A stretch of 48,490 bases of DNA from sequence record OZ035751.1. The stretch is one strand, 5' to 3'. Positions 12,515 to 35,030 of the stretch are shown piece by piece (the first letter of the stretch is position 1; every line of letters starts with the position of its first letter). The notes below the pieces were generated by a model. The model did no database searches. It was not told the DNA's origin and saw nothing but the letters and a program-made list of their open reading frames with translations. The position numbers were made by a program, and so were the translations under genes. Origin of the DNA: Lambdavirus PDP110P1.

Positions 12515-12537
12515 GCCCACCACGGTGGGCTTTTATC
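12513..12537 (+). terminator. rho-independent terminator
   Basis: GCCCAC-CACG-GTGGGC followed by TTTTAT. Confidence 0.65.
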
Positions 12538-12589
12538 CTCCCCCGCATCCCTGCTAATCTGTCGAAAACAAACCAACGGGGATAGGGAT

Positions 12590-12970
12590 ATGAAAAAGGT
12601 TCTATTGGTTGCAGCAATAGCGGTTGTACTTGCCGGTTGTGCTTCTGGCGGCAATAAGTCGATTGAGCAAGAAACGCAGATTGGCGTTCAGAGTAAAATA
12701 ATCAAAGGAAAGACGACGAAGCAAGAAGTTAAGGCTGCATATGGAGATCCAGCTGGGGTATCAATCTCCAGTGATGGGAAAGAACAGTGGCACTATGTTT
12801 TCACAAACACACAGATCAGCGGGAAAGCATTTATTCCCATCTATGGACTATTTGATAACGGCGCTACTACCAACATGAAGCAGCTTATAATCGTGTTTAA
12901 GGGCGATATTGTAGATAATTACTTATTTAATAATTCAAATACAGAAGTTAAATCAGGCCTCCTAAACTAA
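12590..12970 (+). CDS. outer-membrane lipoprotein, BamE/SmpA-OmlA-like (moron)
   Basis: signal peptide with lipobox LAG-C; core IKGKTTKQEVKAAYGDPAGVSISSDGKEQWHYVF resembles the BamE/OmlA fold motif; visibly AT-rich; own terminator. Confidence 0.6.
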   Translation: MKKVLLVAAIAVVLAGCASGGNKSIEQETQIGVQSKIIKGKTTKQEVKAAYGDPAGVSISSDGKEQWHYVFTNTQISGKAFIPIYGLFDNGATTNMKQLIIVFKGDIVDNYLFNNSNTEVKSGLLN

Positions 12971-12988
12971 CCAACTTCCATGTTATAG

Positions 12989-13014
12989 ACCTCGCTCCGG
13001 CGGGGTTTTTTATT
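12989..13014 (+). terminator. rho-independent terminator
   Basis: CCTCGC-TCCG-GCGGGG followed by TTTTTTAT. Confidence 0.7.
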
Positions 13015-13041
13015 GCCAGATAACTCATTCAGGAAACAAAA

Positions 13042-13518
13042 ATGGCTCGTAAAAGCATCGTATTCACGGTTGAAGCAGATAACCGTGACAAGGGTAAGCA
13101 GTTCAAAATCACCGAAATGCCGGCGAGAAAGGCCGAAGAGTGGGCGATCCGCCTGGCGTGTGCCGTGATTGGCGCCGGCGTTACCGTTCCCGACAATATG
13201 ATGATGGCCATCGGTGCTGCGGTGGCGCCGGCCCCAGCCGAGGATAACGCAGAAGCTCGCGAGCTGTACGAAAGCGTGATGGCCAGCGGTATGGCCGGAC
13301 TCGCTCAGTGGGGTATCACTTCACTGGCTAAAGTTCCGTTCGCACAGTCAAAGCCTCTGCTTGATGAGTTGCTTGGCTGCGTGAAATTCCTCGGCGGTAA
13401 TGGTATCGAAACAGCGCTTGTTGACGAAGGTCAGATCGAAGAAATCAGCACCTGGTCGCGCCTGAAAATCGAAGCCTTCAAACTCCATATCGCTTTTGTA
13501 GCAGCCACCGCAAGTTAG
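13042..13518 (+). CDS. tail assembly chaperone (putative)
   Basis: 158 aa immediately upstream of tape measure gene; RBS AGGAAA; a -1 frame stays open to the tape measure start. Confidence 0.45.
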   Translation: MARKSIVFTVEADNRDKGKQFKITEMPARKAEEWAIRLACAVIGAGVTVPDNMMMAIGAAVAPAPAEDNAEARELYESVMASGMAGLAQWGITSLAKVPFAQSKPLLDELLGCVKFLGGNGIETALVDEGQIEEISTWSRLKIEAFKLHIAFVAATAS

Positions 13519-18731: not shown

Positions 18732-19088
18732 ATGAAAACAATATCTCTCAAACTTGACCCAGATACCTGGGATCTTGTCCTTGATGAGCTGGGTAATATC
18801 GCCACGGTTGAAAACCCCTACGCCTGCGCTCAGGACGTAGCGACGGCATGCCTGGCTATACGCGGCGAGTGCATTTACGAAAAAGACACCGGCGTTAATT
18901 ACAAAGAGCTGCTTAACGTTAAGGCCAGCACTGGCGCCATGGCGGCCGCGCTTCAGGTTGAAGCGTTGCGGATGAGCTATATCGCGCGAGCTGAGCCGAC
19001 GCTGATTAACAACAGCGATACGCGCCGCACTACCGGCGTTATTGCGATCGTGGATACCAACGGCCTGGATTCCAGCGTCACCCTGTGA
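18732..19088 (+). CDS. putative baseplate protein (gp25/W-like position)
   Basis: 118-aa ORF preceding the J-like baseplate gene. Confidence 0.35.
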   Translation: MKTISLKLDPDTWDLVLDELGNIATVENPYACAQDVATACLAIRGECIYEKDTGVNYKELLNVKASTGAMAAALQVEALRMSYIARAEPTLINNSDTRRTTGVIAIVDTNGLDSSVTL

Positions 19089-19095
19089 GGAAAAA

Positions 19096-20328
19096 ATGAC
19101 GACAATCTCTACGGCGGTACCGGCCGTGACCTTTTCCACCACTGGCCTTGATGTTCCGGATGAGGGAGACATTCTTGCCGGGCGTATAGCAGATATTGGT
19201 TCTGCATTCGGGACGGCGATGAGCACGAACCTCAAGACGCCACAGGGGCAACTGGCTGTCACTGATACTGCAATCATCGCAGACAAGAACGATCAGCTTC
19301 TGGCTATCGTCAACAACATGAACCCGGACTTTTCCTCCGGAAGATTTCAGGATGGCATTGGCAGGATTTACTTCCTCGATCGTATTGCTGCTGCGGGTAC
19401 GGTTGTAACGGCCACATGCTCCGGCGTACCGGGAACGGTTATTCCGGCACAGTCCTATGCAACCGACGATAACGGTTATATGTACGTGTCCCTGGCGGCC
19501 GGAACGATTGGCGCAGACGGGACGGTAAAAATTGAGTTCCAGAACCTGACTACCGGTCCGATAGCTTGCCCCATCGGTACGCTGACAAACATCTATGTCG
19601 CGGTAAGTGGCTGGTCGAGTATCACCAACGAGACCGCGGGTGTACCGGGCTCGAATGTTGAAGGGCGATCTGCATTTGAGTATCGCCGTCGCCAGTCAGT
19701 GGCACGTAACGCCTTCAACACGGCGGCGGCTGTGCGGGCTGCTGTCCTGGAAGTCGACGGGGTGCTTGATGTTTATGTGATCGACAACAAAGAGCCGACT
19801 TCCGTCGAAAAAGGTTCCACGAATTACACACTGCTGGCCAGCTCGATTTATATCGGGGTTTATGGCGGGGCAGTAGCTGAGATTGCAGCGGCCATCAATA
19901 AAAAACTCCCCCCGGGCACCGTTATGAACGGTGACACCACCGGGACCGTGCAGGATACCGAAAATTATGACGCCCCTTATCCGGAGTACACCTACAGGTG
20001 GAAAACGCTGGACGCGGTGAGTGTTCATATCAAGGTGGAATATGAGGAAAATGATGGCCTTCCGTCAGATATCAACGCGCAGATCAGAACGGTCGTCCTG
20101 AATGCCTTTACCGGCGCAGATGGAGGTACCCGGGCGCGTGCCGGCGCGCGAATTTATGGCAGCCGCTATATCGGACCCATTCAGGCGCTCGATGCACAGA
20201 ACATGAACGTTCTTTCTGTCCAGATCTCTCTGAACGGAACCACCTGGTCTAGTGCGCTGACTATGGGGATAGATCAGGAACCGACCCTCGATGCGACAAA
20301 CATCATAACGGAGGCGGTAAGTGAATAA
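19096..20328 (+). CDS. baseplate J-like protein (putative)
   Basis: ~410 aa from ATG 19096 (RBS GAGGAA); track ORF starts earlier at 19042; position before tail fibres. Confidence 0.45.
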   Translation: MTTISTAVPAVTFSTTGLDVPDEGDILAGRIADIGSAFGTAMSTNLKTPQGQLAVTDTAIIADKNDQLLAIVNNMNPDFSSGRFQDGIGRIYFLDRIAAAGTVVTATCSGVPGTVIPAQSYATDDNGYMYVSLAAGTIGADGTVKIEFQNLTTGPIACPIGTLTNIYVAVSGWSSITNETAGVPGSNVEGRSAFEYRRRQSVARNAFNTAAAVRAAVLEVDGVLDVYVIDNKEPTSVEKGSTNYTLLASSIYIGVYGGAVAEIAAAINKKLPPGTVMNGDTTGTVQDTENYDAPYPEYTYRWKTLDAVSVHIKVEYEENDGLPSDINAQIRTVVLNAFTGADGGTRARAGARIYGSRYIGPIQALDAQNMNVLSVQISLNGTTWSSALTMGIDQEPTLDATNIITEAVSE

Positions 20329-20908
20329 TGTCGACTGGACGATCTACGCGCAGTACGTGAACTCAACCAGCCTGCGGTCACTGATTGACACCTTTAACGC
20401 TTCTGTAGCGCCAGAGGACTGGATAGACACGTTCTATGACCTCGTATTCAACATCGAGACCTGTGGTGATTACGGGCTGATGTGCTGGGGTAAAATCGTT
20501 GATGTAGAGCGCTTGCTGACTGTGACGCCATCCCAGCAGTTTCTGGGGTTTGGCGAAGCGACCAGTACCCCGGCAGAACTCACCGACCCGCAACCCTTTA
20601 ACCAGGCACCTTTCTATACCGGCGTACAGGACACGAATACTGTTGTCCTGACCAATGAGGCATACCGCAAGCTGATCATGTGCAAAGCGATGGCGAACAT
20701 CAGCGACTGCACTGTACCGGTCATGAACCGCATGCTGATGTACATGTTCGGCACCAGCGGGCGGGCTTACGTGCGTGACGATGGCAACCATGTCATGAGC
20801 TACGTATTCGAATTCCAGCTTTCCGATTCTGAGCTGGCCATAGTGCAAAGCTCCGGCGCGCTTCCTTCCCCTCCCGGGGTAAAAGTTAACATCGTTCAGG
20901 AGGTCTGA
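20321..20908 (+). CDS. putative baseplate/tail-fibre attachment protein
   Basis: 195-aa ORF between J-like gene and first tail fibre. Confidence 0.35.
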   Translation: MNNVDWTIYAQYVNSTSLRSLIDTFNASVAPEDWIDTFYDLVFNIETCGDYGLMCWGKIVDVERLLTVTPSQQFLGFGEATSTPAELTDPQPFNQAPFYTGVQDTNTVVLTNEAYRKLIMCKAMANISDCTVPVMNRMLMYMFGTSGRAYVRDDGNHVMSYVFEFQLSDSELAIVQSSGALPSPPGVKVNIVQEV

Positions 20909-20909: not shown

Positions 20910-22205
20910 TTGAATAATTCAGCCATACCGTCACGTCTGACGGTTGTCTTTTCTGTGAGCGGCGATAAAAACACGATCCCGGTCAATTCCACCTCTGAAA
21001 CGCTGGCCGACGGCCTGGCGGCTATGGATTCCGGTTTCCCGCCGCTGACCCGTATCGCACTTTCTGCCGGCGGTAAGCCGCCAAAGGGTCAGGACTTTAA
21101 CGGCATTTTTAATGATCTTTACACTCGCCTGCAATGGTCGGATGCCGGGATGGGGTACCCCTTTAACGCAGATTTCAGAACAGCCATTTCAGGCTACCCT
21201 AAAGGTGCGGTGATCCCTTCCAGCGATTACTCGGTGTCGTGGCTCAACACCATTGACTCCAATAACACCGCACCGGAAAAAACCGATGCAACGGCATCTG
21301 GCTGGATGCCTTCATGGGGATGCGGAGCGGCCAGCATTTCAATATCGACGGCTAACGTTAACGCCACCGATCTGCAGGCTGCTAACCCACGGCTAATTCT
21401 CACCGGCGCGCTAACTGGCAACCGGGTCCTTTATCTTCCGCCCTGGGTGAAAGACTGGACCATCGAAAATAACTGCACCGGCAGCGCTTACTACGTTCAG
21501 TTAAGCACCAGGGCAGCGGGCGCAACGGTTGTCAGCAAGCCAGGCACAGTTACTCAAGTCCACTCCGATGGAATCAACGTAACCTCCCTTTCTACGCCTC
21601 ATGGAAACATCGCTTACGCAGTCAACGGGACATATTCGTTCGTCGTGCCTGCAGGGGTGACGCGTATTCGTTACACCGTGACGGGTGCAGGTGGATCGGG
21701 AAGCGGTTGTCAGGCGTCCTCCTCAAGTGAGTCCTATAGCGGTGGCGGGGGCGGGGCTGGAGGCACAGCAATAGGCTGGCTGGATGTTGTTCCGGGAACG
21801 ACCTTGTCAGTTGTTGTGGGCAAAGGCGGTGCAGCGGTTTTAGGTGCCGTATCCGGCAATGACGGTGGTGACTCTTCTTTGGGTGGGATCATCTTCGGTC
21901 GCGGCGGCAAAAAAGCCAACAAGGCCAGCATCGTGAACAGCGCCGGTGGTGATGGTGGTCTTGCATCAGGTGGCGATATCAACATTCAGGGTGGTACCGG
22001 TCAGGACGGCCAGGCAGCGACAAACATGCTTACCGGTTCTGGCGGTGCTTCGTTCTGGGGTGGTGGCGGACGTAGCGGCGCAACCGGCGGTGTGAAAGGG
22101 AAAGCAGCAGGCTCTGGCGGTGGTGGTGCTTACGATATTGATTTCAGCGGAATAGCTTACCCATCCGGCGATGGCGCCGATGGCATTGTGCATATCGAGT
22201 GGTAA
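20910..22205 (+). CDS. tail fibre protein with glycine-rich C-terminal domain
   Basis: 431 aa; TTG start with GGAGG RBS; C-terminal Gly-rich domain paralogous to that of 25986-27017. Confidence 0.55.
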   Translation: MNNSAIPSRLTVVFSVSGDKNTIPVNSTSETLADGLAAMDSGFPPLTRIALSAGGKPPKGQDFNGIFNDLYTRLQWSDAGMGYPFNADFRTAISGYPKGAVIPSSDYSVSWLNTIDSNNTAPEKTDATASGWMPSWGCGAASISISTANVNATDLQAANPRLILTGALTGNRVLYLPPWVKDWTIENNCTGSAYYVQLSTRAAGATVVSKPGTVTQVHSDGINVTSLSTPHGNIAYAVNGTYSFVVPAGVTRIRYTVTGAGGSGSGCQASSSSESYSGGGGGAGGTAIGWLDVVPGTTLSVVVGKGGAAVLGAVSGNDGGDSSLGGIIFGRGGKKANKASIVNSAGGDGGLASGGDINIQGGTGQDGQAATNMLTGSGGASFWGGGGRSGATGGVKGKAAGSGGGGAYDIDFSGIAYPSGDGADGIVHIEW

Positions 22206-22219: not shown

Positions 22220-25030
22220 ATGGCGACTACCGACACACAGCAAACGGCACAGTTCGCGGCAGAGGCTGCTGTTAGTGCCGCAGAGGCGAAGCAGTACTTG
22301 ATCGAGGTCCAGCAGGGCTATCAGGACATAAGCGCCACCACTCAGGAAGCGATTAATGCAGCCACAGCGGCAGAGGCGGCGAAGATCGCCGCAGAAACTG
22401 CTGAGCAAAATTCATCTACTTCGGCCGCAGCCTCATCCGAATCGGCAACGGCAGCCGCAGGTTCAGCAGCACAGGCTGAAGAGTATGCAAATAACGCTTC
22501 TGACTACGCACAGAATAAGTTCACGTTCTATAAGACTGCCAGCGATCCTGATGGCACCATTGCAGGGTTGGCAGCAACTACTGACGGCCAGTCGTTCTGG
22601 GTAGCTCAGGGGCCAGATGCGCTTTCTGCTGCATGGCAGTATCAAAACAATGCTGGCGTGGCCGTATTGCAGGCAAAGCAGCCAGGCACGGCAGCCATAA
22701 CCGGGACAATCCGCGAATTCCCCACGCTGGAGGCGGCACAGGATGATGCCGATGCCGGCAATATTCCTACAGGTTCAACTGCGTATTATCGAAGCGCTGA
22801 CGACGAAACTCTTGCGATTGAGGTTATTAACACTTCAGGAACGCTGCAGCCTACTGGACGAAAAATGCCATCCGCAATGCCAATGGGTTACCAGTCTGCT
22901 ACAGCTGTGAGTAGCGGTGCGGCTAATACCATTGCTATCACTATCCCCGGATTATTAGTGGATGGCAGTTTGATTTATTTCCTGTCTCCTATTTTGAATA
23001 CGGCGGCTGTTAGCGTTACCGTGACAGATGCCAGGGGGAACTCGGTTACTCGGGCAATACAGAAACAAAATAATGCAGCTTTAGTTGGGAATGAGTTGCT
23101 TCTCAATCAGCCCGCACTGATGGAATTCCGCACTGGGACTGCTAACAATTTTGTCCTTGTGGCATCCGGCCCAGTAGCTGCTGAACTTGCGTCAAGAATT
23201 TCCACGCTTGAATTAAATAGCGTAGCGTTATTGTCTGGCGTTGCTAATACTGCGGACGCCTACACCGCGTCAGCGTCAGCGATACCAGGCCTGGTTGCCT
23301 CTGACCGCGTTTTCCTTTTCACTCCGAGTGCGACGAACACGACACGGACGCCGACCTTATCCGTGAATGGCGGCACTGCGCGCCAGATCAAACAGGCGAA
23401 TGGTACCAACGTCGCAGCGGGAGACCTGGTCTCTGGCTACCCTTATTTATTAAAATTCAATTTTGCATCGGCTGACTTTCGTATGCTCACATACCCAGCG
23501 GACCGGACGCGTCTGCTCAGCGGCCAGCAGAAGGCCACCGTAACCAGTGACGCAACAAGCCCGAACGCTATATCTTTAACAATCCCGGGCCTTATCGCGG
23601 ACGGCACACAAATCACATTCGAGCCAGCTGTCACCAATACCGGGGCGGTGACGCTGCTAATCACCAACATGTATGGCGACACCGTGACTCGCACCCTGAT
23701 GAAAGGGGCTAACACTCCTCTCGTCGGTGGTGAACTGAAGTACGCCATGCCGGTTTCTATCATGTTCAGGGGGGCTCCACAGAACAACTTTAAGCTCCTA
23801 TATGCTGGCGACCCTACCACGGATATACAGACCCTATCGAACGACGTTACGACGCTCAAGGGGTCGCTGACAGACCCTTATGCTGCTCTGGCGGATAAAC
23901 TCGTGGGCACCGGGGTATTATCAGACCAGTCACCATTCGGTACTATAACTTGGTCCGCGGGGGTTAAGAGCGTCACTAAGCGGCAGATCATTTGTACGTC
24001 TGTCGGGTCTTCTGTTGGCGTTGGGGCCGGCTCTACTGGCGGTGGTGCGGCAGGTGCCGCTTATGCACCGAACACACTGTTCGTCAACGCCTTGAAGGAA
24101 GAGCTTAAACAGTACGGCGAGTTTGACGTCATCGATGACAACCAGTGCATACCAACTCAGGCGATTCAGCAGTTCGCTGCCCAGCTAGCGAATTCGCCTT
24201 ATTCAACCTCCGACTTTGTTTTGATTGTAGGGGGGATGAATGATGCGCCAGTTGGTAACTTCAACATGGGGCGCACATTCCCCGGTCAACAAACGTCTCT
24301 CGAGTCGCTGGTAGACTTGTGTCTGGCACGAGGAGCGATTCCAATCATTTGCACTACTCCACATCATAATGTGGAAATGTCTCAGACGTACCCCACAATC
24401 CCCGGTGGTAACCCGCTGTTCTGGCCGTTCAGGACATATAATGTCACAAGTACATATGTCTTCGACGCCGTTGCAAATACCATCACGCAGAGTAACTTTG
24501 CTAACCCGAATTATGGCGGCAATATTCTGAAGCCGGGGCATACTCTGCGCGTAGAAAGTGGAGACAATATCGGCAACTATACTATCACGGCCATTTCCTC
24601 TGACCGGAATACCATAACCGTCCAAGAGACAATCCCGGTAAGTGGAAGCTACTCGACAACGGTCAGACACTTTAACCTGCAGTCCATCGCTGAGGATATT
24701 CTTTACCCTGCACCGTCGGTTTCCTTTGTAACAAAAGACTGGTCCGGTAGCGGCGTTAAGGTACAGGGAGATGTGCGGTTCGAAATGGTGAATAATATGC
24801 AAAGGGTCGTCGCACGCAAAAAAGGCGCGTTCCTCGCAGACTGTGAAAAGTCGTTCTTTAAGTATGGTGTAGAGGTTGGTGGTTACTCGTCGGTATATAA
24901 CGTCCCAGCTGGAAACTACAATCACATGAACGATAACGGGTACACAGTAACTTTCGACTACACGCTGAAAGTCGCAGCAAGGAAGATTGCCAATCTCATA
25001 TTCGGAGATAAATATTACTCTGCAGCATAA
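22220..25030 (+). CDS. tail fibre/tailspike with SGNH/GDSL-hydrolase-like domain
   Basis: ~936 aa from ATG 22220; Ala-rich coiled-coil N-terminus typical of fibres; GDSL-like segment (…ICTSVGSSVG…LIVGGMNDA…). Confidence 0.5.
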   Translation: MATTDTQQTAQFAAEAAVSAAEAKQYLIEVQQGYQDISATTQEAINAATAAEAAKIAAETAEQNSSTSAAASSESATAAAGSAAQAEEYANNASDYAQNKFTFYKTASDPDGTIAGLAATTDGQSFWVAQGPDALSAAWQYQNNAGVAVLQAKQPGTAAITGTIREFPTLEAAQDDADAGNIPTGSTAYYRSADDETLAIEVINTSGTLQPTGRKMPSAMPMGYQSATAVSSGAANTIAITIPGLLVDGSLIYFLSPILNTAAVSVTVTDARGNSVTRAIQKQNNAALVGNELLLNQPALMEFRTGTANNFVLVASGPVAAELASRISTLELNSVALLSGVANTADAYTASASAIPGLVASDRVFLFTPSATNTTRTPTLSVNGGTARQIKQANGTNVAAGDLVSGYPYLLKFNFASADFRMLTYPADRTRLLSGQQKATVTSDATSPNAISLTIPGLIADGTQITFEPAVTNTGAVTLLITNMYGDTVTRTLMKGANTPLVGGELKYAMPVSIMFRGAPQNNFKLLYAGDPTTDIQTLSNDVTTLKGSLTDPYAALADKLVGTGVLSDQSPFGTITWSAGVKSVTKRQIICTSVGSSVGVGAGSTGGGAAGAAYAPNTLFVNALKEELKQYGEFDVIDDNQCIPTQAIQQFAAQLANSPYSTSDFVLIVGGMNDAPVGNFNMGRTFPGQQTSLESLVDLCLARGAIPIICTTPHHNVEMSQTYPTIPGGNPLFWPFRTYNVTSTYVFDAVANTITQSNFANPNYGGNILKPGHTLRVESGDNIGNYTITAISSDRNTITVQETIPVSGSYSTTVRHFNLQSIAEDILYPAPSVSFVTKDWSGSGVKVQGDVRFEMVNNMQRVVARKKGAFLADCEKSFFKYGVEVGGYSSVYNVPAGNYNHMNDNGYTVTFDYTLKVAARKIANLIFGDKYYSAA

Positions 25031-25417
25031 GGAATTATCATGGCTTTTAAAATTTCAGCAGTAAAACTGTCCAGATTTATTATCTCGGAGGATTTCTGTG
25101 TGAAAAGGATATCGGTATTGACCTCATTTACTCAGTAGAAAGCGTCAGGCAGGATGATGCAGGTCAAGTTAAAGCCTCAGTATCTGTTCGATATAATGAT
25201 GCGTCCAGAGTTAACGCTGGAGAGTATGCGGTAACTCTGGACACTTCGTCATCAAAACCGTGGACAGAACAGGCTGAGCAGCAACTTATGCAAGCTGAAG
25301 AGTTTGCTGGGGCAGTTGTCCTGTAACCACAAAAAAAACCTACGCAGACTGAACTGGGTTGACTGCCCTCCGATAAAACTACTGTATATAACAACAGTGT
25401 TTATCGGAGGGCAGATC

Positions 25418-25657
25418 ATGCTTCGACAGTCAGACATCGCCGCGGCTTTCCGCGAGTCCATTTTGCGCAGTTCCAAGGGGTTCCAGTACCTCCACACCCG
25501 CGACTTCGTTACCGCGCTTCGCCGGCGTGGCATCCATTTTTCCGAGGTGGAGGCGAACTCCTGGATCGCACGCGAGCAGACGTATTTCGTCGATAAGACG
25601 CCGGACCATAGCGAAAACAGGCTGTGGATGATGGCCAACATGGGGAGGGTGATCTAA
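25418..25657 (+). CDS. hypothetical protein
   Basis: 79 aa from ATG 25418; its RBS GGAGG lies in the 3' arm of a 15-bp perfect hairpin. Confidence 0.4.
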   Translation: MLRQSDIAAAFRESILRSSKGFQYLHTRDFVTALRRRGIHFSEVEANSWIAREQTYFVDKTPDHSENRLWMMANMGRVI

Positions 25658-25974
25658 TGGGATTCCCTTCACCAGCGACGGACTACGTTGAGCAAAGGTT
25701 GTCTGTTAACTCGATCTGCAATGTCGGCCCAAACACGCTAGTTTTCGAGCGATCTGGCGGTTACGTTGTGCTGGATATCTCCCTGAAGCCAAAGCAGGGT
25801 AGTCAGGTTCTTATCCAGCACGGCGGCGGGACGGAGCTTGCCACGCTGAGAGGAAAGTCACTGATTACTGAAGATGGTGAAGCGATCGAGGGCGAAGCCC
25901 TGGACGATGTTACTGTCATCGGCGTCGTGACGTTTACTATCTGCGATGTTCGTTCCGATAATTCTATTATTTAA
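25657..25974 (+). CDS. hypothetical protein
   Basis: 105 aa; RBS GGGGAGGG; TAATG overlap with upstream gene; directly upstream of third tail fibre. Confidence 0.4.
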   Translation: MGFPSPATDYVEQRLSVNSICNVGPNTLVFERSGGYVVLDISLKPKQGSQVLIQHGGGTELATLRGKSLITEDGEAIEGEALDDVTVIGVVTFTICDVRSDNSII

Positions 25975-25985: not shown

Positions 25986-27017
25986 ATGGCGCTGAAGCTA
26001 TTAGCCAATAATAACGCAAAGAGTGTTCTCGCTGCGGGTATTAGCGCGTCCGCTACCGTTATTACCGTGGGTACTGGAGCTGGGTCTTTATTCCCGTCCC
26101 CTGTATCTGGGCAGAGTTATTTCAAATTAACGATAACCGACGCGGCCACGAAAACAATTTCTGAAATTATGCACGTCACGTCTGTATCCGGTGACGTGAT
26201 GACAGTAATTCGTGGTCAGGAAGGAACTACGGCACGCGTATGGTCAACGAATGACATTGTCGCGAATTTAATGACCGCCGGATCATTGTTGTCGTTCCTG
26301 CAGATCAGCAATAACCTGTCAGAAATTAAAGATGCCGGTGAGGATGCGATAAATGAAGCCCGTTATAACCTCGGAATATCTGATTCCTCTGGTTTTGTCG
26401 GGCGTTCACTTGGCGCTCCAAAAGCTTTCTATGCAAACGGAACCTATACGCGATCTCCTCTGGCCCGTTATGCAAAAGTAACGTTGACCGGTGCCGGTGG
26501 CGGCGGTGGCGGCTGCCAGGCCTCCAACAATACAGAAACCTTCTCCGGTGCTGGCGGCGGCGCGGGCGCGACCATTATCGTATGGGTTGACCTGTCTGCT
26601 GCCAGTTCTTATGCGATTACTGTCGGCAAGGGTGGTAAGGGCGGAGTTGGCGCAGTAAGTGGTGCGGATGGTGGGGCCACCTCGTTTGCCAGCCTGTTCT
26701 CAGCTCCTGGCGGGAAAGGAGGAGTGAAGTCAGGCGTGTCCAATACCGCCGGCGGCGCCGGAGGTACGGCGGCGACCGGAGATATCAGGATCAACGGTGG
26801 TACCGGCTCAGATGGACAGACAGGCTCAAGCCTTCTGACGGGCAACGGCGGGGCGTCGTATTTTGGCGGCGGTGGCCGGGCGGGTTCTCAGGCCGGTATT
26901 GCTGGCGCAGCTCCCGGATCCGGTGGTGGTGGCGCGTATGACCTTGGGTTTACCGGTACGGCATTTACCGGTGGTGATGGTGCTACTGGCATGGCGATCG
27001 TGGAAGAATTCGCGTAA
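25986..27017 (+). CDS. tail fibre protein with glycine-rich C-terminal domain
   Basis: 343 aa; C-terminal ~170 aa paralogous to C-terminus of 20910-22205. Confidence 0.55.
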   Translation: MALKLLANNNAKSVLAAGISASATVITVGTGAGSLFPSPVSGQSYFKLTITDAATKTISEIMHVTSVSGDVMTVIRGQEGTTARVWSTNDIVANLMTAGSLLSFLQISNNLSEIKDAGEDAINEARYNLGISDSSGFVGRSLGAPKAFYANGTYTRSPLARYAKVTLTGAGGGGGGCQASNNTETFSGAGGGAGATIIVWVDLSAASSYAITVGKGGKGGVGAVSGADGGATSFASLFSAPGGKGGVKSGVSNTAGGAGGTAATGDIRINGGTGSDGQTGSSLLTGNGGASYFGGGGRAGSQAGIAGAAPGSGGGGAYDLGFTGTAFTGGDGATGMAIVEEFA

Positions 27018-27159
27018 TGGCTTACACTCCTGCACGACCATCGATGTAATCAGCCCACCACTGCATCATCTACCTGCGCTTATCGAGATACTGAGCATGG
27101 TTGTAAATTCAACTAACCCAGTGCATTGACAAAAAATTAGCGCAAGAAGACAAAAAATC

Positions 27160-27420
27160 ACCTTGCGCTAATGCTCTGTTACAGGTCACTAATACCATCT
27201 AAGTGGTTGATTCATAGTGACTGGATATGTTGTGTTTTGTAGTATTATGCAGTCTATTATTTAGACTAAATCTTTCATAACATATTGATATTTACAGTGT
27301 TTTCTGTTTATTGTTCAGCTTTTTTATACTAAGTTGGCATTATAAAAAAGCATTGCTTATCAATTTGTTGCAACGAACAGGTCACTATCAGTCAAAATAA
27401 AATCATTATTTGATTTCAAT
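27160..27420. other. attP: attP (lambda-type; core 27318-27332)
   Basis: lambda core GCTTTTTTATACTAA with flanking lambda arm sequence (…ACAGGTCACTA…), adjacent to int. Confidence 0.85.
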
Positions 27421-28476
27421 TTTGTCCCACTCCCTGCCTCTGTCATCACGATACTGTGATGCCATGGTGTCCGACTTATGCCCGAGAAGATGTTGAGCAA
27501 ATTTATCGCTTATCTGCTTCTCATAGAGTCTTGCAGACAAACTGCGCAACTCGTGAAAGGTTGGCGGATCCCCTTCGAAGGAGAGACCTGATGCTTTTCG
27601 TGCGCGCATAAAATACCTTGATACTGTGCCGGATGAAAGCGGTTCACGACGAGTAGATGCAATTATGGTTTCTCCGCCAAGAATCTTTTTGCATTTATCA
27701 AGTGTTTCCTTCATTGATATCCCGAGAGCATCAACATGCAATGTTGTTGGGATAGCAATTTTTACGCCTGTTTTGCTTTGCTCGACATAAAGATATCCAT
27801 CTACGATATCAGACCACTTCATTTCGCATAAATCACCAACTCGCTGCCCGGTAACAACAGCCAGTTCCATTGCAAGTCTAAGCCAACATGGTGATGATTC
27901 TGCTGCTTGATAAATTTTCAGGTATTCGTCAGCCGTAAGTCTTGATCTCCTTACCTCTGATTTTGCAGCGCGAGTGGCTGCGACCGGGTTTGTTGTTATA
28001 TGGCCTTCAGCTATAGCCTCTCGGAATGCATCGCTCAGTGTTGATCTGATTAACTTGGCTGATGCCGCCTTGCCCTCGTCTATGTATCCATTGAGCATTG
28101 CCGCAATTTCTTTTGTGGTGATGTCTTCAAGTGGAGCATCAGGCAGACCCCTCCTTATTGCTTTAATTTTGCTCATGTAATTTATGAGTGTCTTCTGCTT
28201 GATTCCTCTGCTGGCCAGGATTTTTTCGTAGCGATCAAGCCATGAATGTAACGTAACGGAATTATCACTGTTGATTCTCGCTGTCAGAGGCTTGTGTTTG
28301 TGTCCTGAAAATAACTCAATGTTGGCCTGTATAGCTTCAGTGATTGCGATTCGCCTGTCTCGGCCTAATCCAAACTCTTTACCCGTCCTTGGGTCCCTGT
28401 AGCAGTAATATCCATTGTTTCTTATATAAAGGTTAGGTGGTAAATCCCGGCGCTCATGACTTCGCCTTCTTCCCAT
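27406..28476 (-). CDS. int: integrase (lambda Int, tyrosine recombinase)
   Basis: 356-aa protein MGRRRSHERRDLPPNLYIRNNGYYCYRDPRTGKEF…, recognised as lambda Int. Confidence 0.95.
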   Translation of the reverse strand: MGRRRSHERRDLPPNLYIRNNGYYCYRDPRTGKEFGLGRDRRIAITEAIQANIELFSGHKHKPLTARINSDNSVTLHSWLDRYEKILASRGIKQKTLINYMSKIKAIRRGLPDAPLEDITTKEIAAMLNGYIDEGKAASAKLIRSTLSDAFREAIAEGHITTNPVAATRAAKSEVRRSRLTADEYLKIYQAAESSPCWLRLAMELAVVTGQRVGDLCEMKWSDIVDGYLYVEQSKTGVKIAIPTTLHVDALGISMKETLDKCKKILGGETIIASTRREPLSSGTVSRYFMRARKASGLSFEGDPPTFHELRSLSARLYEKQISDKFAQHLLGHKSDTMASQYRDDRGREWDKIEIK

Positions 28477-28672
28477 TTCTGATCCTCTTCAAAAGGCTAC
28501 CTGTTACTGGTCGATTTAAGTCAACCTTTACCGCTGATTCGTGGAACAGATACTCTCTTCCATCCTTAACCGGAGGAGGGAATATCCTGCACTCGCGTAC
28601 CCATCGACGAACTGTTTCAAGGCTTCTTGGGCGTCGCTGGCGAGCGTTCCACTCCTGAAGTGTCAAGTACAT
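28454..28672 (-). CDS. xis: excisionase Xis
   Basis: 72 aa MYLTLQEWNARQRRPRSLETVRRWVRECRIFPP…; overlaps int start as in lambda. Confidence 0.9.
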   Translation of the reverse strand: MYLTLQEWNARQRRPRSLETVRRWVRECRIFPPPVKDGREYLFHESAVKVDLNRPVTGSLLKRIRNGKKAKS

Positions 28673-28757
28673 CGCAAAGTCTCCGCAATTACTCGCAAGG
28701 GAACGAGTAGTGGTTGATTTTTCTCCAACAAAAAAGGAGCCGAAGCTCCTTTGATGA

Positions 28758-29381
28758 TTAAAATTCGAATTGTCTCGCCCGAAGGCTTTTCAACATTGGT
28801 CTTGCCCGTTCGAAAACGGCGCTTGTCTGGTCAAGTCGTGTCGCCTCCCTGAGCAGTACATCTCTGTTTTTCGTCACCGCATAGAAGGTTTCAAACGCAA
28901 TGTCATACAGCTTACTCGCGTATGATGAGTTAAGTTCCTTCATTATCGGGTACAGGAGTTTGCAGATGTCCTGTGCATTCTCCATCTGTACCTGCATGTA
29001 GCAGAGGAGGATGATTTCCTCGTCTGTGAATTGCTGCGCTGGTTGCATGCTGCGAAGTTTCTTTTCGCACTCGATGAAGTATCGGCGTATCTGGCGGCCT
29101 TTTTCGTTGCGCTCCACCATAGCCAGTTCTTTGGCTGTATCGAGGGTGAGGTGGTAGTCCTTGCGGTTGTGACCGCCTCTACCAGATGTTTGCTTTCCCA
29201 AATTGGAAAGCAAAATATAGTCTTGATTTTCAATGAATTTGTATTCTGAAATGCGATTTGTAATCCATGCCGCAAACACCTTTTTCACGCCTAAAAAAGC
29301 ATGCAGATCGCGGGCATTGCAGAGTAGGGCTGTTTCGTTGGCGATAGTGCCGTTGAATACGGGGATGAGTTGACTGGTCAT
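28758..29381 (-). CDS. antirepressor-like protein (AntA/ORF6N-type N-terminal domain)
   Basis: 207 aa from ATG 29381 with RBS AAAGGAGG; N-terminal domain resembles the phage antirepressor/Bro-N family. Confidence 0.5.
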   Translation of the reverse strand: MTSQLIPVFNGTIANETALLCNARDLHAFLGVKKVFAAWITNRISEYKFIENQDYILLSNLGKQTSGRGGHNRKDYHLTLDTAKELAMVERNEKGRQIRRYFIECEKKLRSMQPAQQFTDEEIILLCYMQVQMENAQDICKLLYPIMKELNSSYASKLYDIAFETFYAVTKNRDVLLREATRLDQTSAVFERARPMLKSLRARQFEF

Positions 29382-29736
29382 GATGACCTCCTTTGAAGTT
29401 TTAGTTAGCAATCACCAGTTAGTGGCTGGTGATCGGGTGTCAACTAGAGCCTTCAAAGATGCTCCGGGCATATTCCCCTTGCGGGTATTGTATTACGCCT
29501 CTCCACCCGACCTTTGTACGGATGTGACTATGCCAAATTGCAGGCATAAAAAAGCCGCAAAGCTATCGGGTGCGGATGACCGCTTTGAAGTTCTAGTGCG
29601 GTCAGTATGCGATAGCTCTGGCGGATTTGTCAAATCATGTGGTCTTTATCTTGCTGTAAGCCGCGCCATTCGGGATTTTCCCCAAATTTGGGGGAAACTA
29701 TCTGCGAAGTATTCACCTTTGACGGCAAGTTTCAGG

Positions 29737-30021
29737 TTAGCCACGACCTTCCTCCTTTGGCTTGTGAATTTGTATCGTCATGCCGCTTTGAGTGGTGACT
29801 ACAATGACAGAACCAGGCTGAAGGCTGTTAAGATTGAATGCTTCGTAAAACGAATCCAATGCCAGTGCTTTTTTATTCTTTCGGTCCCACCAACGCCATC
29901 CCTTGCTACAGGCTACACTGACAATCCACTGTCCACTCCTGTAAGCCATATAAAACCAGATGAGCAAAACCTGAAGGAAGACTATCCAGTCAATAATCGT
30001 ATATTTCGCGAAGGAGTCCAT
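29737..30021 (-). CDS. small membrane protein
   Basis: 94 aa; N-terminal hydrophobic helix; ATGA overlap with upstream gene. Confidence 0.4.
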   Translation of the reverse strand: MDSFAKYTIIDWIVFLQVLLIWFYMAYRSGQWIVSVACSKGWRWWDRKNKKALALDSFYEAFNLNSLQPGSVIVVTTQSGMTIQIHKPKEEGRG

Positions 30022-30935
30022 TACTTCATCTCCTGCGGCGGTTCCGGTAGCGGCATCCAGTGAGTTGCTTGCTCAATACCATTACCCGGCTTAATCGTTG
30101 CATCTCCGCGCCGAAAGGTGCTTCCGGTATAGCGTGCGGAGCATATTAGCGGTTCAACCAGAGAGCTATCGAAATTCACCGAAATAAGCACGTTCTGGCC
30201 ATTTTCAGGCATTCGATCACTACAGCTTATCCAACTATCCGGAGTTCCCGGAGAGTTGCCATTTACATCGAAGTTTGGCTCTGCGTCCTGAACCAGGAGG
30301 ATGTAACCATTCTTGGCTGTATCAAGTTCTAACGCCTCGGTGACGGTGCCGAAATAGCGATTACCTAAATCAGCATCACAAGTGCTTACATCAATGGAAA
30401 CTTCCATGCCTTCGATTAATTCTGGCAAGTTGTAAGTTTGGCTTACAGGTTGGCTACCCTGAAGCATGGCAGCGTGGCAGGCTTCATCAACCATAGCTTC
30501 TACGTTTTCGAGAAGTACGTAACTGTACTGCTGCCCACTAACCCATTCTTTTCTGCGAGGTAATGCGCGTGGGTCCGCTACAATGGTTCGCAAACGTTCC
30601 AGAACAGCAGGCACTACCGGCTCTACTGCCAACTGACTGGCATATTTGTTAATGGTAACGATAAGCTCTTGCTCGGCCTCATCCAGACAATCACCGATAC
30701 CTCGCCTGTCACCGTCAAAATCATCGAAATCGGCACGAATCCTGGCAACCTCCCGGATTGCGGACAACACTTCACCAGGAATAAGCGGAGAGTTGCCCGA
30801 TAGTGCATTCTGCTCCAGTGATGCCAGTGCAATCCGTGCCAGCTCACGAATCTCACCGCCGTCTATATCGTCAATGTCATCACGGCCAGAAATGTTAGCC
30901 AGCCATTGCAGTCGCTCTTTGGTAATAGTGGTCAT
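30021..30935 (-). CDS. DUF551-domain protein
   Basis: 304 aa; RBS AAGGAG; C-terminal motif …ATHWMPLPEPP resembling DUF551. Confidence 0.5.
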   Translation of the reverse strand: MTTITKERLQWLANISGRDDIDDIDGGEIRELARIALASLEQNALSGNSPLIPGEVLSAIREVARIRADFDDFDGDRRGIGDCLDEAEQELIVTINKYASQLAVEPVVPAVLERLRTIVADPRALPRRKEWVSGQQYSYVLLENVEAMVDEACHAAMLQGSQPVSQTYNLPELIEGMEVSIDVSTCDADLGNRYFGTVTEALELDTAKNGYILLVQDAEPNFDVNGNSPGTPDSWISCSDRMPENGQNVLISVNFDSSLVEPLICSARYTGSTFRRGDATIKPGNGIEQATHWMPLPEPPQEMK

Positions 30936-30945
30936 GTGTTACTCC

Positions 30946-31209
30946 TTAACCAGCTGTGCTTTCAACTGACGAGGGGAACAAAATCTTTTCTTCAAATCCG
31001 GCATTCATATCATGGACAGCAACACACCAATCCATTGACGAACGATTATCAAGAGCCTCCATGATTTCATCCATGCGGCGTAGGTCATACAGGTAAATGT
31101 TTTTATCACCAATGGTGTAAAAACCAATTTTTTTCGGTGACGGGCAGCGATCAATAACGTTCTGTAATTCGCTCAACCATGCCTGTTCCTTTTTTGTCAA
31201 AGTTGCCAT
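30946..31209 (-). CDS. hypothetical protein
   Basis: 87-aa ORF in early-left operon. Confidence 0.45.
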   Translation of the reverse strand: MATLTKKEQAWLSELQNVIDRCPSPKKIGFYTIGDKNIYLYDLRRMDEIMEALDNRSSMDWCVAVHDMNAGFEEKILFPSSVESTAG

Positions 31210-31210
31210 A

Positions 31211-31618
31211 TCACTCTCCTTTGATGCGAATGCCTGCGGCGCGGATTGCAGCGATGACTTCAGAAACTTTGTATGCCATTACCGTTTGGTAATCATCGTG
31301 AAAATCTGTTCGATGAAGCATGCTGCTACGTTCCGGGAGCAGTATTTCCCGCGCTTCCAGTTCTGCAATGCGCTTTTTTGCTGCTTCCAGTTCATCCAGT
31401 AATTCCAGCACGGTAGCCGGATTAGCCTTGGCAACAAAATCCCGGACTGGCTTACAATCAATCTCCGCAATTGGTTGATACAATGTGTAGCCATGCTGTC
31501 TTGTATAACTACCGTGACGAATAACGAAAAAATCACCATTTATTTTTTTAGCCTGCCACTTATCTTCACCGGCTTTCTCTGCCGCTTCACGCAGTGCCTG
31601 ATAGTCAATCTTGCTCAC
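31211..31618 (-). CDS. hypothetical protein
   Basis: 135 aa; GTG start in context AGGAGGCAACCAGTGAG. Confidence 0.45.
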   Translation of the reverse strand: MSKIDYQALREAAEKAGEDKWQAKKINGDFFVIRHGSYTRQHGYTLYQPIAEIDCKPVRDFVAKANPATVLELLDELEAAKKRIAELEAREILLPERSSMLHRTDFHDDYQTVMAYKVSEVIAAIRAAGIRIKGE

Positions 31619-31859
31619 TGGTTGCCTCCTGCTTCTCTGCCTTCAACACCATGCGAGAACCATCATCAAGTTCCCACGCGATCTCACCACCTTCAGCCAT
31701 GACCAGTCGCCACACCAATTGAGCAGCCTCATTGGTAACATCACGACCTGGATCATTGCCAACGCGCATACGTCCACCTTCAACATCGCGCATTTTTGCC
31801 AGCATGATAGTTTTTGATAGCGGTGAAAAACCAAGCTGTAGTCGTGCTGAATTACTCAC
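31605..31859 (-). CDS. hypothetical protein
   Basis: 84 aa from GTG 31859 with the same AGGAGGCAACCAGTGAG start context; track ORF extends further 5'. Confidence 0.4.
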   Translation of the reverse strand: MSNSARLQLGFSPLSKTIMLAKMRDVEGGRMRVGNDPGRDVTNEAAQLVWRLVMAEGGEIAWELDDGSRMVLKAEKQEATSEQD

Positions 31860-32089
31860 TGGTTGCCTCCTTTGCGTAACTGGGCGGCGCTTCTGATCTT
31901 TCCACTCTTGACCCCAGCGAAAGCCTTTAGCCAAAGCTTACGGTTGAGTGGATCATCTGTTGAATACGGATTGTCAGTTACCTCGAGGCCTATTACGGCG
32001 GCGTAGATTCCCTCCTCGTAAGCGTTGTCGACGTCTCTGGCATTACCATCTGCATCAATTCTTCTGGCAGGCTTAATCTGATTGCTCAT
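31856..32089 (-). CDS. hypothetical protein
   Basis: 77-aa ORF, coupled to neighbours. Confidence 0.4.
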   Translation of the reverse strand: MSNQIKPARRIDADGNARDVDNAYEEGIYAAVIGLEVTDNPYSTDDPLNRKLWLKAFAGVKSGKIRSAAQLRKGGNQ

Positions 32090-32526
32090 GCTGCACCTCC
32101 TTCGCGAAGCTGAGTGGCGAATTCATTAAGCTCAGCTAACAATTCATCAGCCCACTGAGCCGCTCTGCTTGCGTAGAGCATCTCCACACCCTGCGCCCGG
32201 ACTTCAGCCAGGAAAGCATCTGTGGCTGGGGTGTCTGATTGCAGAGACTTTGCGCGATAGTCATTCCACCCTCTTGCATACATGGGATTAACTTGCACTC
32301 CATCTTTTACGCAATATGCCTGACCTCCACGGTTGATAACCTTGATTTCGTCCATAGCGCCAGACTTCAGCCCCGCATTCTCCGCCGCCAGCGCCGCGCA
32401 CTTGGCCTCCGCTTCAGCAAATTTACGCACCAGATATTCAGCGTTTGTTTCGTTAACCTTTAAATCACTTGGAATGCATTTACCTTTCAGAAATCCATCC
32501 ATCTCAATTAGTGACATTTGTTTCAT
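32086..32526 (-). CDS. hypothetical protein
   Basis: ~146 aa from ATG 32526 (track ORF from 32544). Confidence 0.4.
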
Positions 32527-32687
32527 TTTTTCCCACTCCGCCACATCGCATTCAGATATTTGTTTTGATTTACTGACGGAAAAGAATTTCTCTTAAGTAA
32601 TTCCTCTCTCGATGGCATTGGCTTTACGCGTTGGCGAATAATCATTTCTGCCGGAAGAATGCCGGGATTGTATGCAAGTCCTCTCAT
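32523..32687 (-). CDS. small hypothetical protein
   Basis: 54-aa ORF with RBS AAGAGGAA; stop overlaps next start; below the track size cutoff. Confidence 0.3.
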
Positions 32688-32703
32688 GGTAAATTCCTCT
32701 TTG

Positions 32704-33018
32704 TTAATTTATTCGTATGCCTGCTCTTTCTTCATCGAGTTTTTTTAGCTTGTATCGCATAGCTCTTACTGAATAAATTGAGCGGCAGGTTGCAATTGCT
32801 ATTTCTTCTGCGGAGAACTTACCGAAAAGTGATACTTCGGCTCTTGTCCAGCGTCTTCCACGAAGTCGGCTAACAATGTCAGCGCCAATCCTTGTTGCTT
32901 TCGCCATAACTGCTTTTTCAGTCCTTTCCAGTTTTTCAGCAATAACTTCAACTGGCATTGTCGCCGATACTTCGCGCAAGAAATCGACTTCCCATTTCTC
33001 CCATGGAGCCTTTTTCAT
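32704..33018 (-). CDS. hypothetical protein
   Basis: 104-aa ORF. Confidence 0.45.
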
Positions 33019-33029
33019 AGGCGATACCG

Positions 33030-33518
33030 TTATTTGATAAGAAGTGAAGGTTTACCAACCTTGAGTTGAGCACCGGGAATATTTATTCCTGCTTTTAGTT
33101 GGTGCTTGATTGCCAACTTGTCGGCTTTAATTGTCGTTTCAAACTCAACGTAATCAGGAGGAAGGGCGCTTGAGTCGATGATTTCTACAGTTTCTGACGG
33201 TTTGCGGATTGTTACCTGGTGAATACCTGCTCTAATCTTTTTCTTGCCAACCATTTCAAGCGATGAGGCTATATATGACATAATGCTATCAATCTTATTT
33301 TGAATTACTGCGGCTCGTTCATTTAGTGACTTTGCCTCTTCCTTGAGGCGTTCAGCATAACCAGATTCATTTTTAATAATGGCAAGAAGTTGCTCTATTT
33401 TATCGGTAAATTCTCCTTCCATGCCTTCTATTGTGTCAGCAATCATCTCTGGCTCTAAATCTGAATCCATCAATTTTGCGTATTCATTGGCAATTTCATA
33501 TAGTTTGCTCACTGGCAA
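33030..33518 (-). CDS. Gp157-like protein (RecT-associated)
   Basis: 162 aa immediately upstream of RecT-like gene, the usual pairing. Confidence 0.45.
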   Translation of the reverse strand: MPVSKLYEIANEYAKLMDSDLEPEMIADTIEGMEGEFTDKIEQLLAIIKNESGYAERLKEEAKSLNERAAVIQNKIDSIMSYIASSLEMVGKKKIRAGIHQVTIRKPSETVEIIDSSALPPDYVEFETTIKADKLAIKHQLKAGINIPGAQLKVGKPSLLIK

Positions 33519-34407
33519 CCTCCAGTTTTGCTTTGCATTCTGCGTAAATGGCTTGTACGTTCTGCTGCAATTTCATTCCAGATGTCAGGCGATATGCTTC
33601 TGCAAAATATCGCTTCAAATCATCCATGTTTTCTGCCTGAGCCATTTCATCACAAAGAAGTTGAGCTTTTTCCATAATTTCCTGCTGGCGTTTCCGTTCA
33701 TCTTCGCGGATATCTTCCTCTGATTTGTGCGGCATAACTGGTTCAGTCCATACACCTTCTTCTTCGTTTAGTACGTGAATAGCACTATCAAGACGTGATG
33801 CCTTAGGCCAATACTTGCTTGCACGCTTTACGACCGTCTTTCGCGCCATCTCATTCCAGTGATTTACCCATGGTCCTTTATCGCTGAATGCCGCCTTGCT
33901 TGTTTTCCTTACAGCCTCAATTTCAGCCAGACTCATCTCTTCCGTTAGATAATCACCTGCTGGCGTCTTAACTGTGCAGTAAACGCCAACGATATCACCA
34001 CGATCACCGAAGGCGTTGTATTTATGGGTTGGTGCTTTATCAAGCCCGTTTGACTCATAGGTATCGTTAGCATGAACAAGTTTTGCCTGACCCCATGAGA
34101 TAACACCAGACTCCATTGCAATATGGAGCAATCCCATATAACTGATATCAAGGCACACCATGCCGTCGCGCGGAACCAGATAAGCCAGTTTGCTAGCCGG
34201 GTTTAAGGTGATGCCGATCGCCGCAACATTGATGATGGCGTTCTGTGCGCTGGTTGGATTTGCCAGTGCTGTTTTAGCCAGGTAATCATTTTTCTGGAAA
34301 TACTGAATTGCAAACTGGCTTTCCTTAGCCCATGTCACCGTCTGTTCAGTCAATGCTCCGCAGAATAACTGCTCTTGCTGTTTAACGAATTCAACGATAT
34401 TGCTCAT
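33496..34407 (-). CDS. recT: RecT-family single-strand annealing recombinase
   Basis: 303 aa; segment GPWVNHWNEMARKTVVKRASKYWP matches the conserved RecT region. Confidence 0.8.
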   Translation of the reverse strand: MSNIVEFVKQQEQLFCGALTEQTVTWAKESQFAIQYFQKNDYLAKTALANPTSAQNAIINVAAIGITLNPASKLAYLVPRDGMVCLDISYMGLLHIAMESGVISWGQAKLVHANDTYESNGLDKAPTHKYNAFGDRGDIVGVYCTVKTPAGDYLTEEMSLAEIEAVRKTSKAAFSDKGPWVNHWNEMARKTVVKRASKYWPKASRLDSAIHVLNEEEGVWTEPVMPHKSEEDIREDERKRQQEIMEKAQLLCDEMAQAENMDDLKRYFAEAYRLTSGMKLQQNVQAIYAECKAKLEVASEQTI

Positions 34408-34715
34408 GCTGCTTCTCCAAAAATGTGTCTGCGTTTGAATATTGCGAAGGCATATTCAGCCTTAACTCTTTTGGTTATTGCATCCCAGAACCATTCAGCG
34501 GCTTTTTCCTGATAGTCACAGTCATCATCTTCCAGCCAGTCGATAGCGTCCTTAGTGTGTTCATCTGGCTTATATGAGCGAAGCATTTCGCTTATTGGGT
34601 CACAACGTTTGCAGAGGCGATCAACTTCACTGTTGATTCGTTCGTAATCTTCATCAGTAAAACTTGCGATGATTTGCGATATTTCACGCTTATCATTCAG
34701 AGTCAGAATCATCAT
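34404..34715 (-). CDS. hypothetical protein (upstream of recT)
   Basis: 103-aa acidic protein, ATGA-coupled to recT. Confidence 0.45.
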   Translation of the reverse strand: MMILTLNDKREISQIIASFTDEDYERINSEVDRLCKRCDPISEMLRSYKPDEHTKDAIDWLEDDDCDYQEKAAEWFWDAITKRVKAEYAFAIFKRRHIFGEAA

Positions 34716-34800
34716 CTTTCTCCTGTTCTTTGTGCTGATTGAGCATTTTGTTCATCTGACGAATGAATTCTTCGTCTGACCAGTTATCTGTAAAACTCAT
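34693..34800 (-). CDS. small hypothetical protein
   Basis: 35-aa ORF, start overlaps upstream stop (CCATGA). Confidence 0.3.
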   Translation of the reverse strand: MSFTDNWSDEEFIRQMNKMLNQHKEQEKDDDSDSE

Positions 34801-34967: not shown

Positions 34968-35030
34968 AGGATGCTCCTTCTGTTTGATTGCATAACGAAA
35001 ACGCCTCGAGTGAAGCGTTATTGGTATGCA

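Follow-up and report, generated by a model that had tools for sequence, protein, structure and literature searches.

The tail module of Lambdavirus PDP110P1 (sequence record OZ035751.1), whose 48,490-nucleotide (nt) sequence was analysed as a whole and is called the window here, carries a gene for a fibre of 936 amino acids (aa). We propose that this fibre is a receptor-binding protein whose tip is an SGNH-type acetyl esterase acting on O-acetylated surface polysaccharide, a reading to which we assign a probability of roughly 0.7. The reading frame is intact and occupies a fibre slot in the genome, the C-terminal part is modelled with an SGNH fold, the catalytic Ser, Asn and His positions are conserved, and the protein is homologous to a fibre with measured esterase activity. 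A preliminary description of the same DNA had pictured a fibre that either deacetylates or degrades a surface polysaccharide, and the predicted fold, the position in the tail module and the family membership of the sequence point to a fibre of the deacetylating, esterase type.

22220..25030, + strand: complete tail-fibre gene, 936 codons followed by TAA; the protein is WP_050008813.1

The open reading frame (ORF) starts with an ATG that has an AGGA ribosome-binding site 7 nt upstream. A longer reading from a GTG at 22199 was considered and discarded as unneeded; it overlaps the stop of the preceding gene. The result is of use for annotation, because the exact protein, present at NCBI on 47 contigs, is named just 'hypothetical protein [Escherichia coli]', and the RefSeq genome has a 654-nt pseudogene instead of the gene. 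There (NZ_CP151050.1, 3444345-3447155), the Prokaryotic Genome Annotation Pipeline (PGAP) records the first 654 nt only, as 'missing C-terminus' and under the name 'SGNH/GDSL hydrolase family protein', and leaves the other 2.1 kb of the ORF unannotated. This annotation as a pseudogene fragment is wrong, as the ORF is intact. The PGAP name derives from proteins with a common N-terminal adaptor and, because it is also put on N-terminal fragments without the domain, it provides no independent evidence for the domain.

The Pfam family Lipase_GDSL_2 matched aa 596-724 of the fibre with an E-value of 9.3e-6, over the first half of the profile only, and phrog_18703, a 517-position profile named 'tail fiber protein', matched aa 594-769. 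An NCBIfam scan of the fibre gave nothing relevant, and phmmer, run with the full-length protein on PDB sequences, returned a spurious low-complexity match only. Sequence alone was suggestive, not conclusive, and the fold was therefore tested with an AlphaFold2 (AF2) model of aa 550-936, built from an alignment of 42 family members (mean predicted local distance difference test score (pLDDT) 91.6, predicted template modelling score 0.88). When this model was compared with the PDB using Foldseek, the top matches were exclusively SGNH/GDSL enzymes, and included the putative GDSL lipases 4q9a and 1yzf, the acetylxylan esterase Axe2, a rhamnogalacturonan acetylesterase, E. coli TAP, and Shigella phage Moo19 gp82. 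Among predicted viral structures, the best matches were to proteins with an SGNH domain from a Vibrio phage and from Escherichia phage K30 (E 4e-17 and 1e-15, respectively; ~350 columns), with the tail spike of Pectobacterium phage PP99 next. The fibre tip is, as modelled, a three-layer α/β/α SGNH fold, in agreement with the SGNH/GDSL-like domain anticipated from the letters of the sequence.

Residue equivalences in the catalytic blocks were taken from profile-to-PDB-sequence alignments and from the family columns (~290 domains).

24011-24013 (Ser598 codon), + strand: block I, G596-S597-S598, canonical G-D-S; aligned on the GDS of 9otv
24155-24157 (Thr646 codon), + strand: block II, N641...P645-T646; canonical Gly
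24239-24241 (Asn674 codon), + strand: block III, G672-M-N674-D675; canonical G-x-N-D
24914-24916 (Asn899 codon) and 24923-24925 (His902 codon), + strand: block V, N899-Y-N-H902; canonical D-x-x-H

In block I, G596 was present in 285/285 and S598 in 284/285 domains, the middle residue being S, D, N, T, M or C. Both motifs quoted in the preliminary description were found (aa 590-600 and 668-676); the G-S-S of the first is conserved, but its 'TS' at 593-594 is not. For block III, N674 was found in 290/291 and D675 in 272/291 domains, and the block V residue His902, which aligns with the His of DRIH in LAE5, 5jd3, was likewise found in 290/291. The Ser-Asp-His arrangement that had been put forward for checking was recovered in part in the profile alignment, with Ser598 and His902 in place but Asn899 at the Asp position and Thr646 at the block II Gly. 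At position 899, the family has N in 159, E in 74, Q in 37, and D in 13 domains. At position 646, following Pro645 in the fibre, the family has Gly in 247 and Thr in 37 domains. The 37 Thr646 sequences make up the fibre's own subclade, which has diverged down to 46% identity; among sequences complete at the position, G596, S598, N674, and D675 are kept in 37/37, and N899 and H902 in 35/35 (two fragments end earlier). As the active-site residues are kept throughout the subclade over this range of divergence, the Pro-Thr variant is old and constrained, not a recent lesion.

The C-terminal domain belongs to a family that is abundant in Klebsiella pneumoniae, K. quasipneumoniae, K. variicola, K. 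oxytoca, and Raoultella, with few members in E. coli (234 word-index matches; 247 representatives at 50% identity with E <= 1e-3 in an exhaustive search). Klebsiella prophages have been analysed by Otwinowska et al. (PLoS Biol 2026, PMC13123978), according to whom esterase-tipped fibres are their commonest enzymatic receptor-binding proteins, and 6 of 16 capsule-type predictors from genome-wide association carry an SGNH domain. In that work, the fibres 164_08-KL2 and 174_38-KL55 hydrolysed p-nitrophenyl acetate (pNPA) and were without depolymerase activity when tried on 118 K-types. SGNH domains were likewise prevalent among the Klebsiella prophage tail proteins of an independent survey (PMC12115436). 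We used P0081 as a proxy for 174_38-KL55 (WP_255896696.1), to which it is 100% identical over the 399 residues printed in the supplement and equal in length (839 aa). Proteins of this kind, their prevalence in prophages, and esterase activity in a relative with 62% identity have been published before; the points of mild interest are the Pro-Thr/Asn active-site variant, the cross-genus occurrence in an E. coli strain that has a capsule locus of Klebsiella type, and the faulty public annotation.

Several observations weigh against an active esterase directed at a surface glycan. The Lipase_GDSL_2 match scored 26.7 bits, under the gathering score of 32.9 bits, as was also the case for the homologues P0081, P0012, P0016, and P0132, which fall below the threshold. 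The canonical Asp of block V is missing from the fibre, which has Asn899 instead. The Gly of block II, part of the oxyanion hole in canonical members of the SGNH superfamily, has given way to Thr646 in the fibre and is kept in the tested homologue. The activity of 174_38-KL55 was shown on the surrogate substrate pNPA only (PMC13123978). SGNH receptor-binding protein clusters are, on average, less K-locus-specific than β-helix depolymerases (PMC13123978), and the capsule is therefore not necessarily the target. Furthermore, the capsule type and acetylation of the lysogen, E. coli 20KM2222, are deduced from gene content alone.

The changes at two of the five canonical positions, together with the Gly retained in the active homologue, are also what speaks for the main alternative, namely that the SGNH fold has been kept while catalysis is dead or very weak, the tip serving only to bind carbohydrate in a lectin-like manner. 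We consider this unlikely. Ser598, Asn674, and His902 are essentially invariant in the ~290 domains and are kept in the Pro-Thr subclade down to its most diverged members, which would be unexpected after loss of catalysis. In the established SGNH mechanism, block II contributes to the oxyanion hole through a backbone amide, which a non-Gly residue could in principle supply, and Asn or Gln three positions before the His is the majority state (196 of ~290 domains), with P0081, the proxy for the active homologue, having Asn.

Other activities are permitted by the SGNH superfamily as well. One of them, that the esterase acts as a lipase, a phospholipase, or a lipid A deacylase and breaches the outer membrane by cleaving an acyl ester of a lipid or lipopolysaccharide, we hold to be quite improbable. 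Among the structural neighbours of the tip, the phage receptor-binding proteins G7C gp63.1 and the spike of PP99 have been described as deacetylating O-antigen (the latter reportedly so in the literature on PP99), the tested family member cleaves an acetyl ester, the distal tip of a fibre first meets the glycan layer, and the 'lipase' names are automatic family labels. The superfamily would similarly allow an SGNH-like O-acyltransferase of the PatB/OatA/AlgX type, which modifies a surface glycan and does not hydrolyse it; given that candidates of this type rank far under hydrolases, that the tested homologue frees acetate from pNPA in water, and that no acyl donor is obvious for a fibre on a virion outside the cell, this deserves still less credence. 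Least probable of all is a capsule or O-antigen depolymerase, an activity that many Klebsiella phage receptor-binding proteins do possess (PMC13123978), since Pfam, PHROG, and NCBIfam scans gave no β-helix, lyase, or glycosidase signal, the full-length model comprises helices, three small β repeats, and the SGNH domain only, without a β-helix, and the homologue 174_38-KL55 was inactive as a depolymerase. The acyltransferase and depolymerase readings were both rejected on these grounds. Two terms of the preliminary description need correction. Degradation of polysaccharide is not supported, as SGNH esterases remove acyl groups and do not cut glycans, and the protein, with its shaft of three repeats, is a fibre and not a β-helix tailspike.

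The layout of the fibre was derived from a full-length AF2 model (pLDDT 80.3), internal repeat comparisons, and PHROG matches. Pfam searches with separate sub-regions, i.e., the insert (aa ~733-836), the N-terminus (aa 1-225), and the shaft (aa 223-532), returned no family, and their description here draws on the model and the family alignment only.

22220..22510, + strand: Ala-rich helical N-terminus, aa 1-97 (composition; helices 4-31 and 38-97 in the model, pLDDT 45-73)
22511..22885, + strand: α/β adaptor and conserved, widely shared junction module (...GTLQPTGRKMPS...), aa 98-222 (PHROG, alignments)
22886..23812, + strand: three tandem β-rich shaft repeats of ~95 aa, aa 223-531 (223-318, 334-428, and 434-531; repeat comparison, model)
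23813..23905, + strand: helical neck between shaft and enzyme domain, aa 532-562 (helices 532-549 and 553-562 in the model)
23942..24424, + strand: SGNH domain, N-terminal part, aa 575-735 (blocks I, II, and III)
24425..24709, + strand: inserted β-rich domain, aa 736-830, interrupting the SGNH fold between blocks III and V
24710..25027, + strand: SGNH domain, C-terminal part, aa 831-936 (block V)

The Ala-rich N-terminus of a fibre of about 936 aa, as first described, was confirmed. Ala makes up 34% of aa 1-97 compared to 14% of the whole protein, and two long helices are predicted with modest confidence. The PHROG tail-fibre N-terminal families phrog_31000 and phrog_38670 match this region, which, as modelled, is probably a trimeric coiled-coil stalk or attachment region. 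The following part (aa ~95-222) is common to lambda-Stf-like PF08400 proteins, and PHROGs 9750, 3257, and 31290 match aa ~165-220 only. As judged from sequence comparisons, N-terminal adaptors are swapped upstream of or within the junction module: the 857-aa fibre of PDP110P2 (OZ035745) has a different N-terminus and is 98% identical from aa 165 on only, P0081 aligns from aa 223 on only, and the 90%-identity cluster of the fibre, with 59 members, holds forms of 843, 857, 873, 936, and 968 aa from E. coli and Klebsiella. The shaft repeats are 28-43% identical to one another and are separated by short helices (318-331 and 426-433 in the model). The strands of the inserted domain (741-749, 775-778, 785-792, 798-801, and 809-818) were modelled with pLDDT >90. 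Close relatives have this insert conserved, and in most of the distant relatives the match falls into two separate parts, one on each side of it; its role may be that of a lid that binds substrate or of an element for oligomerisation.

Taking these modules together with the proposed esterase activity, the gene product would be a distal receptor-binding fibre, presumably a trimer, on a temperate phage whose tail is of the baseplate type. The Ala-rich helical N-terminus and the exchangeable adaptor would dock the fibre to the baseplate, the three β-rich repeats would form the shaft, and the SGNH esterase with its inserted β domain would form the tip. On contact with a cell, a catalytically competent tip would bind O-acetylated surface polysaccharide and hydrolyse its acetyl esters, leaving the chain uncut. 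In this reaction, Ser598 would act as nucleophile and His902 as base, with Asn899 orienting His902 in place of the usual Asp, and the oxyanion hole would be formed by Asn674 and backbone amides including that of residue 646. Deacetylation of O-antigen without chain cutting is known for G7C gp63.1 (summarised in PMC13123978). During adsorption, binding and deacetylation would let the virion cross or commit to the glycan layer, and the module would in this way set host range.

The genes upstream of the fibre gene were assigned as follows.

from 19042, + strand: baseplate J-like gene (19042..20908 with the DUF2612 gene; Pfam/PHROG scans)
20321-20908, + strand: DUF2612 gene, upstream of the fibre genes
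20910..22205, + strand: glycine-rich-domain (PF21722) tail-fibre protein, 431 aa (phrog_12796 tail fiber protein, E 9e-177)

Because these three genes precede it, the SGNH-fibre gene is taken to occupy the fibre position in a tail module of the baseplate type. The sequence identities mark the phage as a hybrid of a Klebsiella-type virion/baseplate arm (window 1-22900), 92-96% identical to Klebsiella temperate phages, e.g., ST15-VIM1phi2.1, RCIP0114, and KP12, and a lambda-type int-to-nin arm (window 27000-47000), ~96.6% identical to lambda. A prophage of E. coli 20KM2222, a strain from a dog wound in Switzerland, has the same sequence as the whole window and lies at lambda attB, beside ybhB-bioA. 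Over most of its length, the fibre gene was found in 1 of 5,426 complete E. coli genomes, namely that of this source strain.

The 20KM2222 genome contains a Klebsiella-type group 1 capsule locus with an O9-family wzm/wzt/wbdA polymannan O-antigen locus beside it (NZ_CP151050.1, 1941595-1958451 and 1968754-1980660). The capsule locus has the order wzi-wza-wzb-wzc-wbaP-wzx (flippase)-glycosyltransferase genes-wzy-GH28-like-Acyl_transf_3-glycosyltransferase gene-gnd. Acyl_transf_3 is a family of membrane O-acetyltransferases of surface glycans, and the presence of such a gene (WP_021514683.1) in the locus therefore makes an O-acetylated capsule a reasonable substrate candidate. A search for relatives of the 20KM2222 Wzy in GTDB species-representative genomes found none. 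A group 1 capsule of Klebsiella type would be the likeliest substrate, with O-antigen as the alternative; a capsule substrate is also in keeping with where the virion module comes from, given its close identity to Klebsiella temperate phages.

A second PF21722 glycine-rich tail-fibre-like protein (343 aa) is encoded at 25986-27017, past a UmuD-like pair and adjoining attP/int; judging from the two PF21722 fibre-like proteins, of 431 and 343 aa, the virion may carry more than one receptor-binding protein. A tail-fibre assembly chaperone was sought immediately downstream of the fibre gene, at 25031-25417 (~390 bp); none was evident in this stretch, and it had no PHROG match. The stretch holds broken short ORFs only, a 32-aa ORF and then an out-of-frame reading of ~70 aa; it is identical in PDP110P2, and a 252-aa gene takes its place in E. 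coli strain 126. A palindrome resembling a LexA box, TACTGTATATAACAACAGTG, is present at 25380-25399; it agrees with the SOS-box consensus in 16/20 positions and has an intact CTGT-N8-ACAG. Two genes (25418-25974) lie ~20 nt downstream of it, the first of 79 aa (phrog_3893) and the second, UmuD-like, of 105 aa. The box is kept in strain 126 and in PDP110P2, and the arrangement suggests an SOS-regulated moron between the fibre genes. Further upstream, at ~11300-13500 of the window, genes that match KilA-N, Rha, and antirepressor genes of various Klebsiella phages lie amid the structural cluster, between tail genes (ORFs 11502-12257, 12590-12970, and 13042-13518). In 'Wanchaivirus PDP110P2' (OZ035745.1, 14621-28873), genes for a baseplate hub, a baseplate J-like protein, DUF2612, and a glycine-rich fibre are found upstream of the gene for the 857-aa SGNH fibre. 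Wanchaivirus belongs to the Hendrixvirinae, an HK97-like group, and the genus label of PDP110P2 probably reflects its lambdoid arm, not its tail type.

More tentatively, the Pro645-Thr646/Asn899 variant could represent an old, constrained fibre-esterase subclade, present with at least 90% identity in E. coli and in Klebsiella prophages, that targets an O-acetylated Klebsiella-type group 1 capsule which both genera can carry; this one module would then have let Klebsiella virion genes, after recombination with a lambda backbone for lysogeny and replication, settle in E. coli, a scenario we see as possible and, on balance, doubtful. If true, it would offer a concrete case in which capsule chemistry, not host genus, bounds phage gene flow, and an SGNH esterase that works without the canonical Gly and without the canonical Asp. 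The Pro-Thr/Asn subclade offers a natural experiment on which SGNH residues can be dispensed with, and the E. coli lysogen, with a Klebsiella-type capsule locus and its own acyltransferase, makes a tractable trio of host, phage, and substrate. The overall picture is unchanged, and the finding is useful, not surprising.

Among the known systems compared, one likeness is to the tail fibre gp47 of Pseudomonas phage Pa193 (PDB 9B45), in which aa 233-349 match the family shaft-repeat profile (E 3.5e-12); the likeness is confined to the shaft module, and similarity of the tip was not found. The cellular SGNH/GDSL esterases (1yzf of E. faecalis, Axe2 3w7v, the rhamnogalacturonan acetylesterase 1deo, and Ape1 4k3u) are alike in the core α/β/α fold and in blocks I, III, and V, but they are single-domain, soluble proteins with the canonical Gly and Asp, without a fibre context or an inserted β domain. 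Phage G7C gp63.1 (PDB 4QNL), the O-antigen O-deacetylase of an N4-like E. coli podovirus, has 11% identity to the fibre without a sequence-level match, and differs in N-terminal and shaft architecture, phage type, and lifestyle, G7C being virulent; the fibre lacks the sequence homology to gp63.1 and to its N-terminal particle-binding domains that would mark a fibre of the gp63.1 type. The spikes and fibres of Pectobacterium phages PP99 and Possum are SGNH receptor-binding proteins too (Foldseek E 1e-6 to 2e-5), with 10-11% identity and different overall architectures. In the literature (PMC9569702), they are reported to be O-polysaccharide deacetylases.

The best viral structural matches were F8R4T7 of Escherichia phage K30 (517 aa) and A0A2I7RXG8 of Vibrio phage 1.249.B (~350-360 columns, Foldseek E 1e-15 to 4e-17, TMq 0.57-0.59). 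They have ~20% identity, are much shorter, and lack the three-repeat shaft. Phage K30 is named after the E. coli K30 group 1 capsule, and we know of no functional tests of these two proteins. Closest of all is 174_38-KL55, which, as represented by P0081, is 62% identical over 726 aa (fibre aa 223-933) and collinear through the shaft repeats, the neck, the SGNH domain, and the insert. P0081 has the same G-S-S in block I, GGMND in block III, and N-Y-N-H, with Asn for Asp, in block V, whereas block II reads I-I-G-Q compared to I-P-T-Q in the fibre, and its N-terminal ~220 aa are unrelated, in keeping with an adaptor swap. Both fibres are encoded in the same kind of prophage tail module, the one described here differing in that its prophage resides in E. 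coli and has a lysogeny arm of the lambda type.

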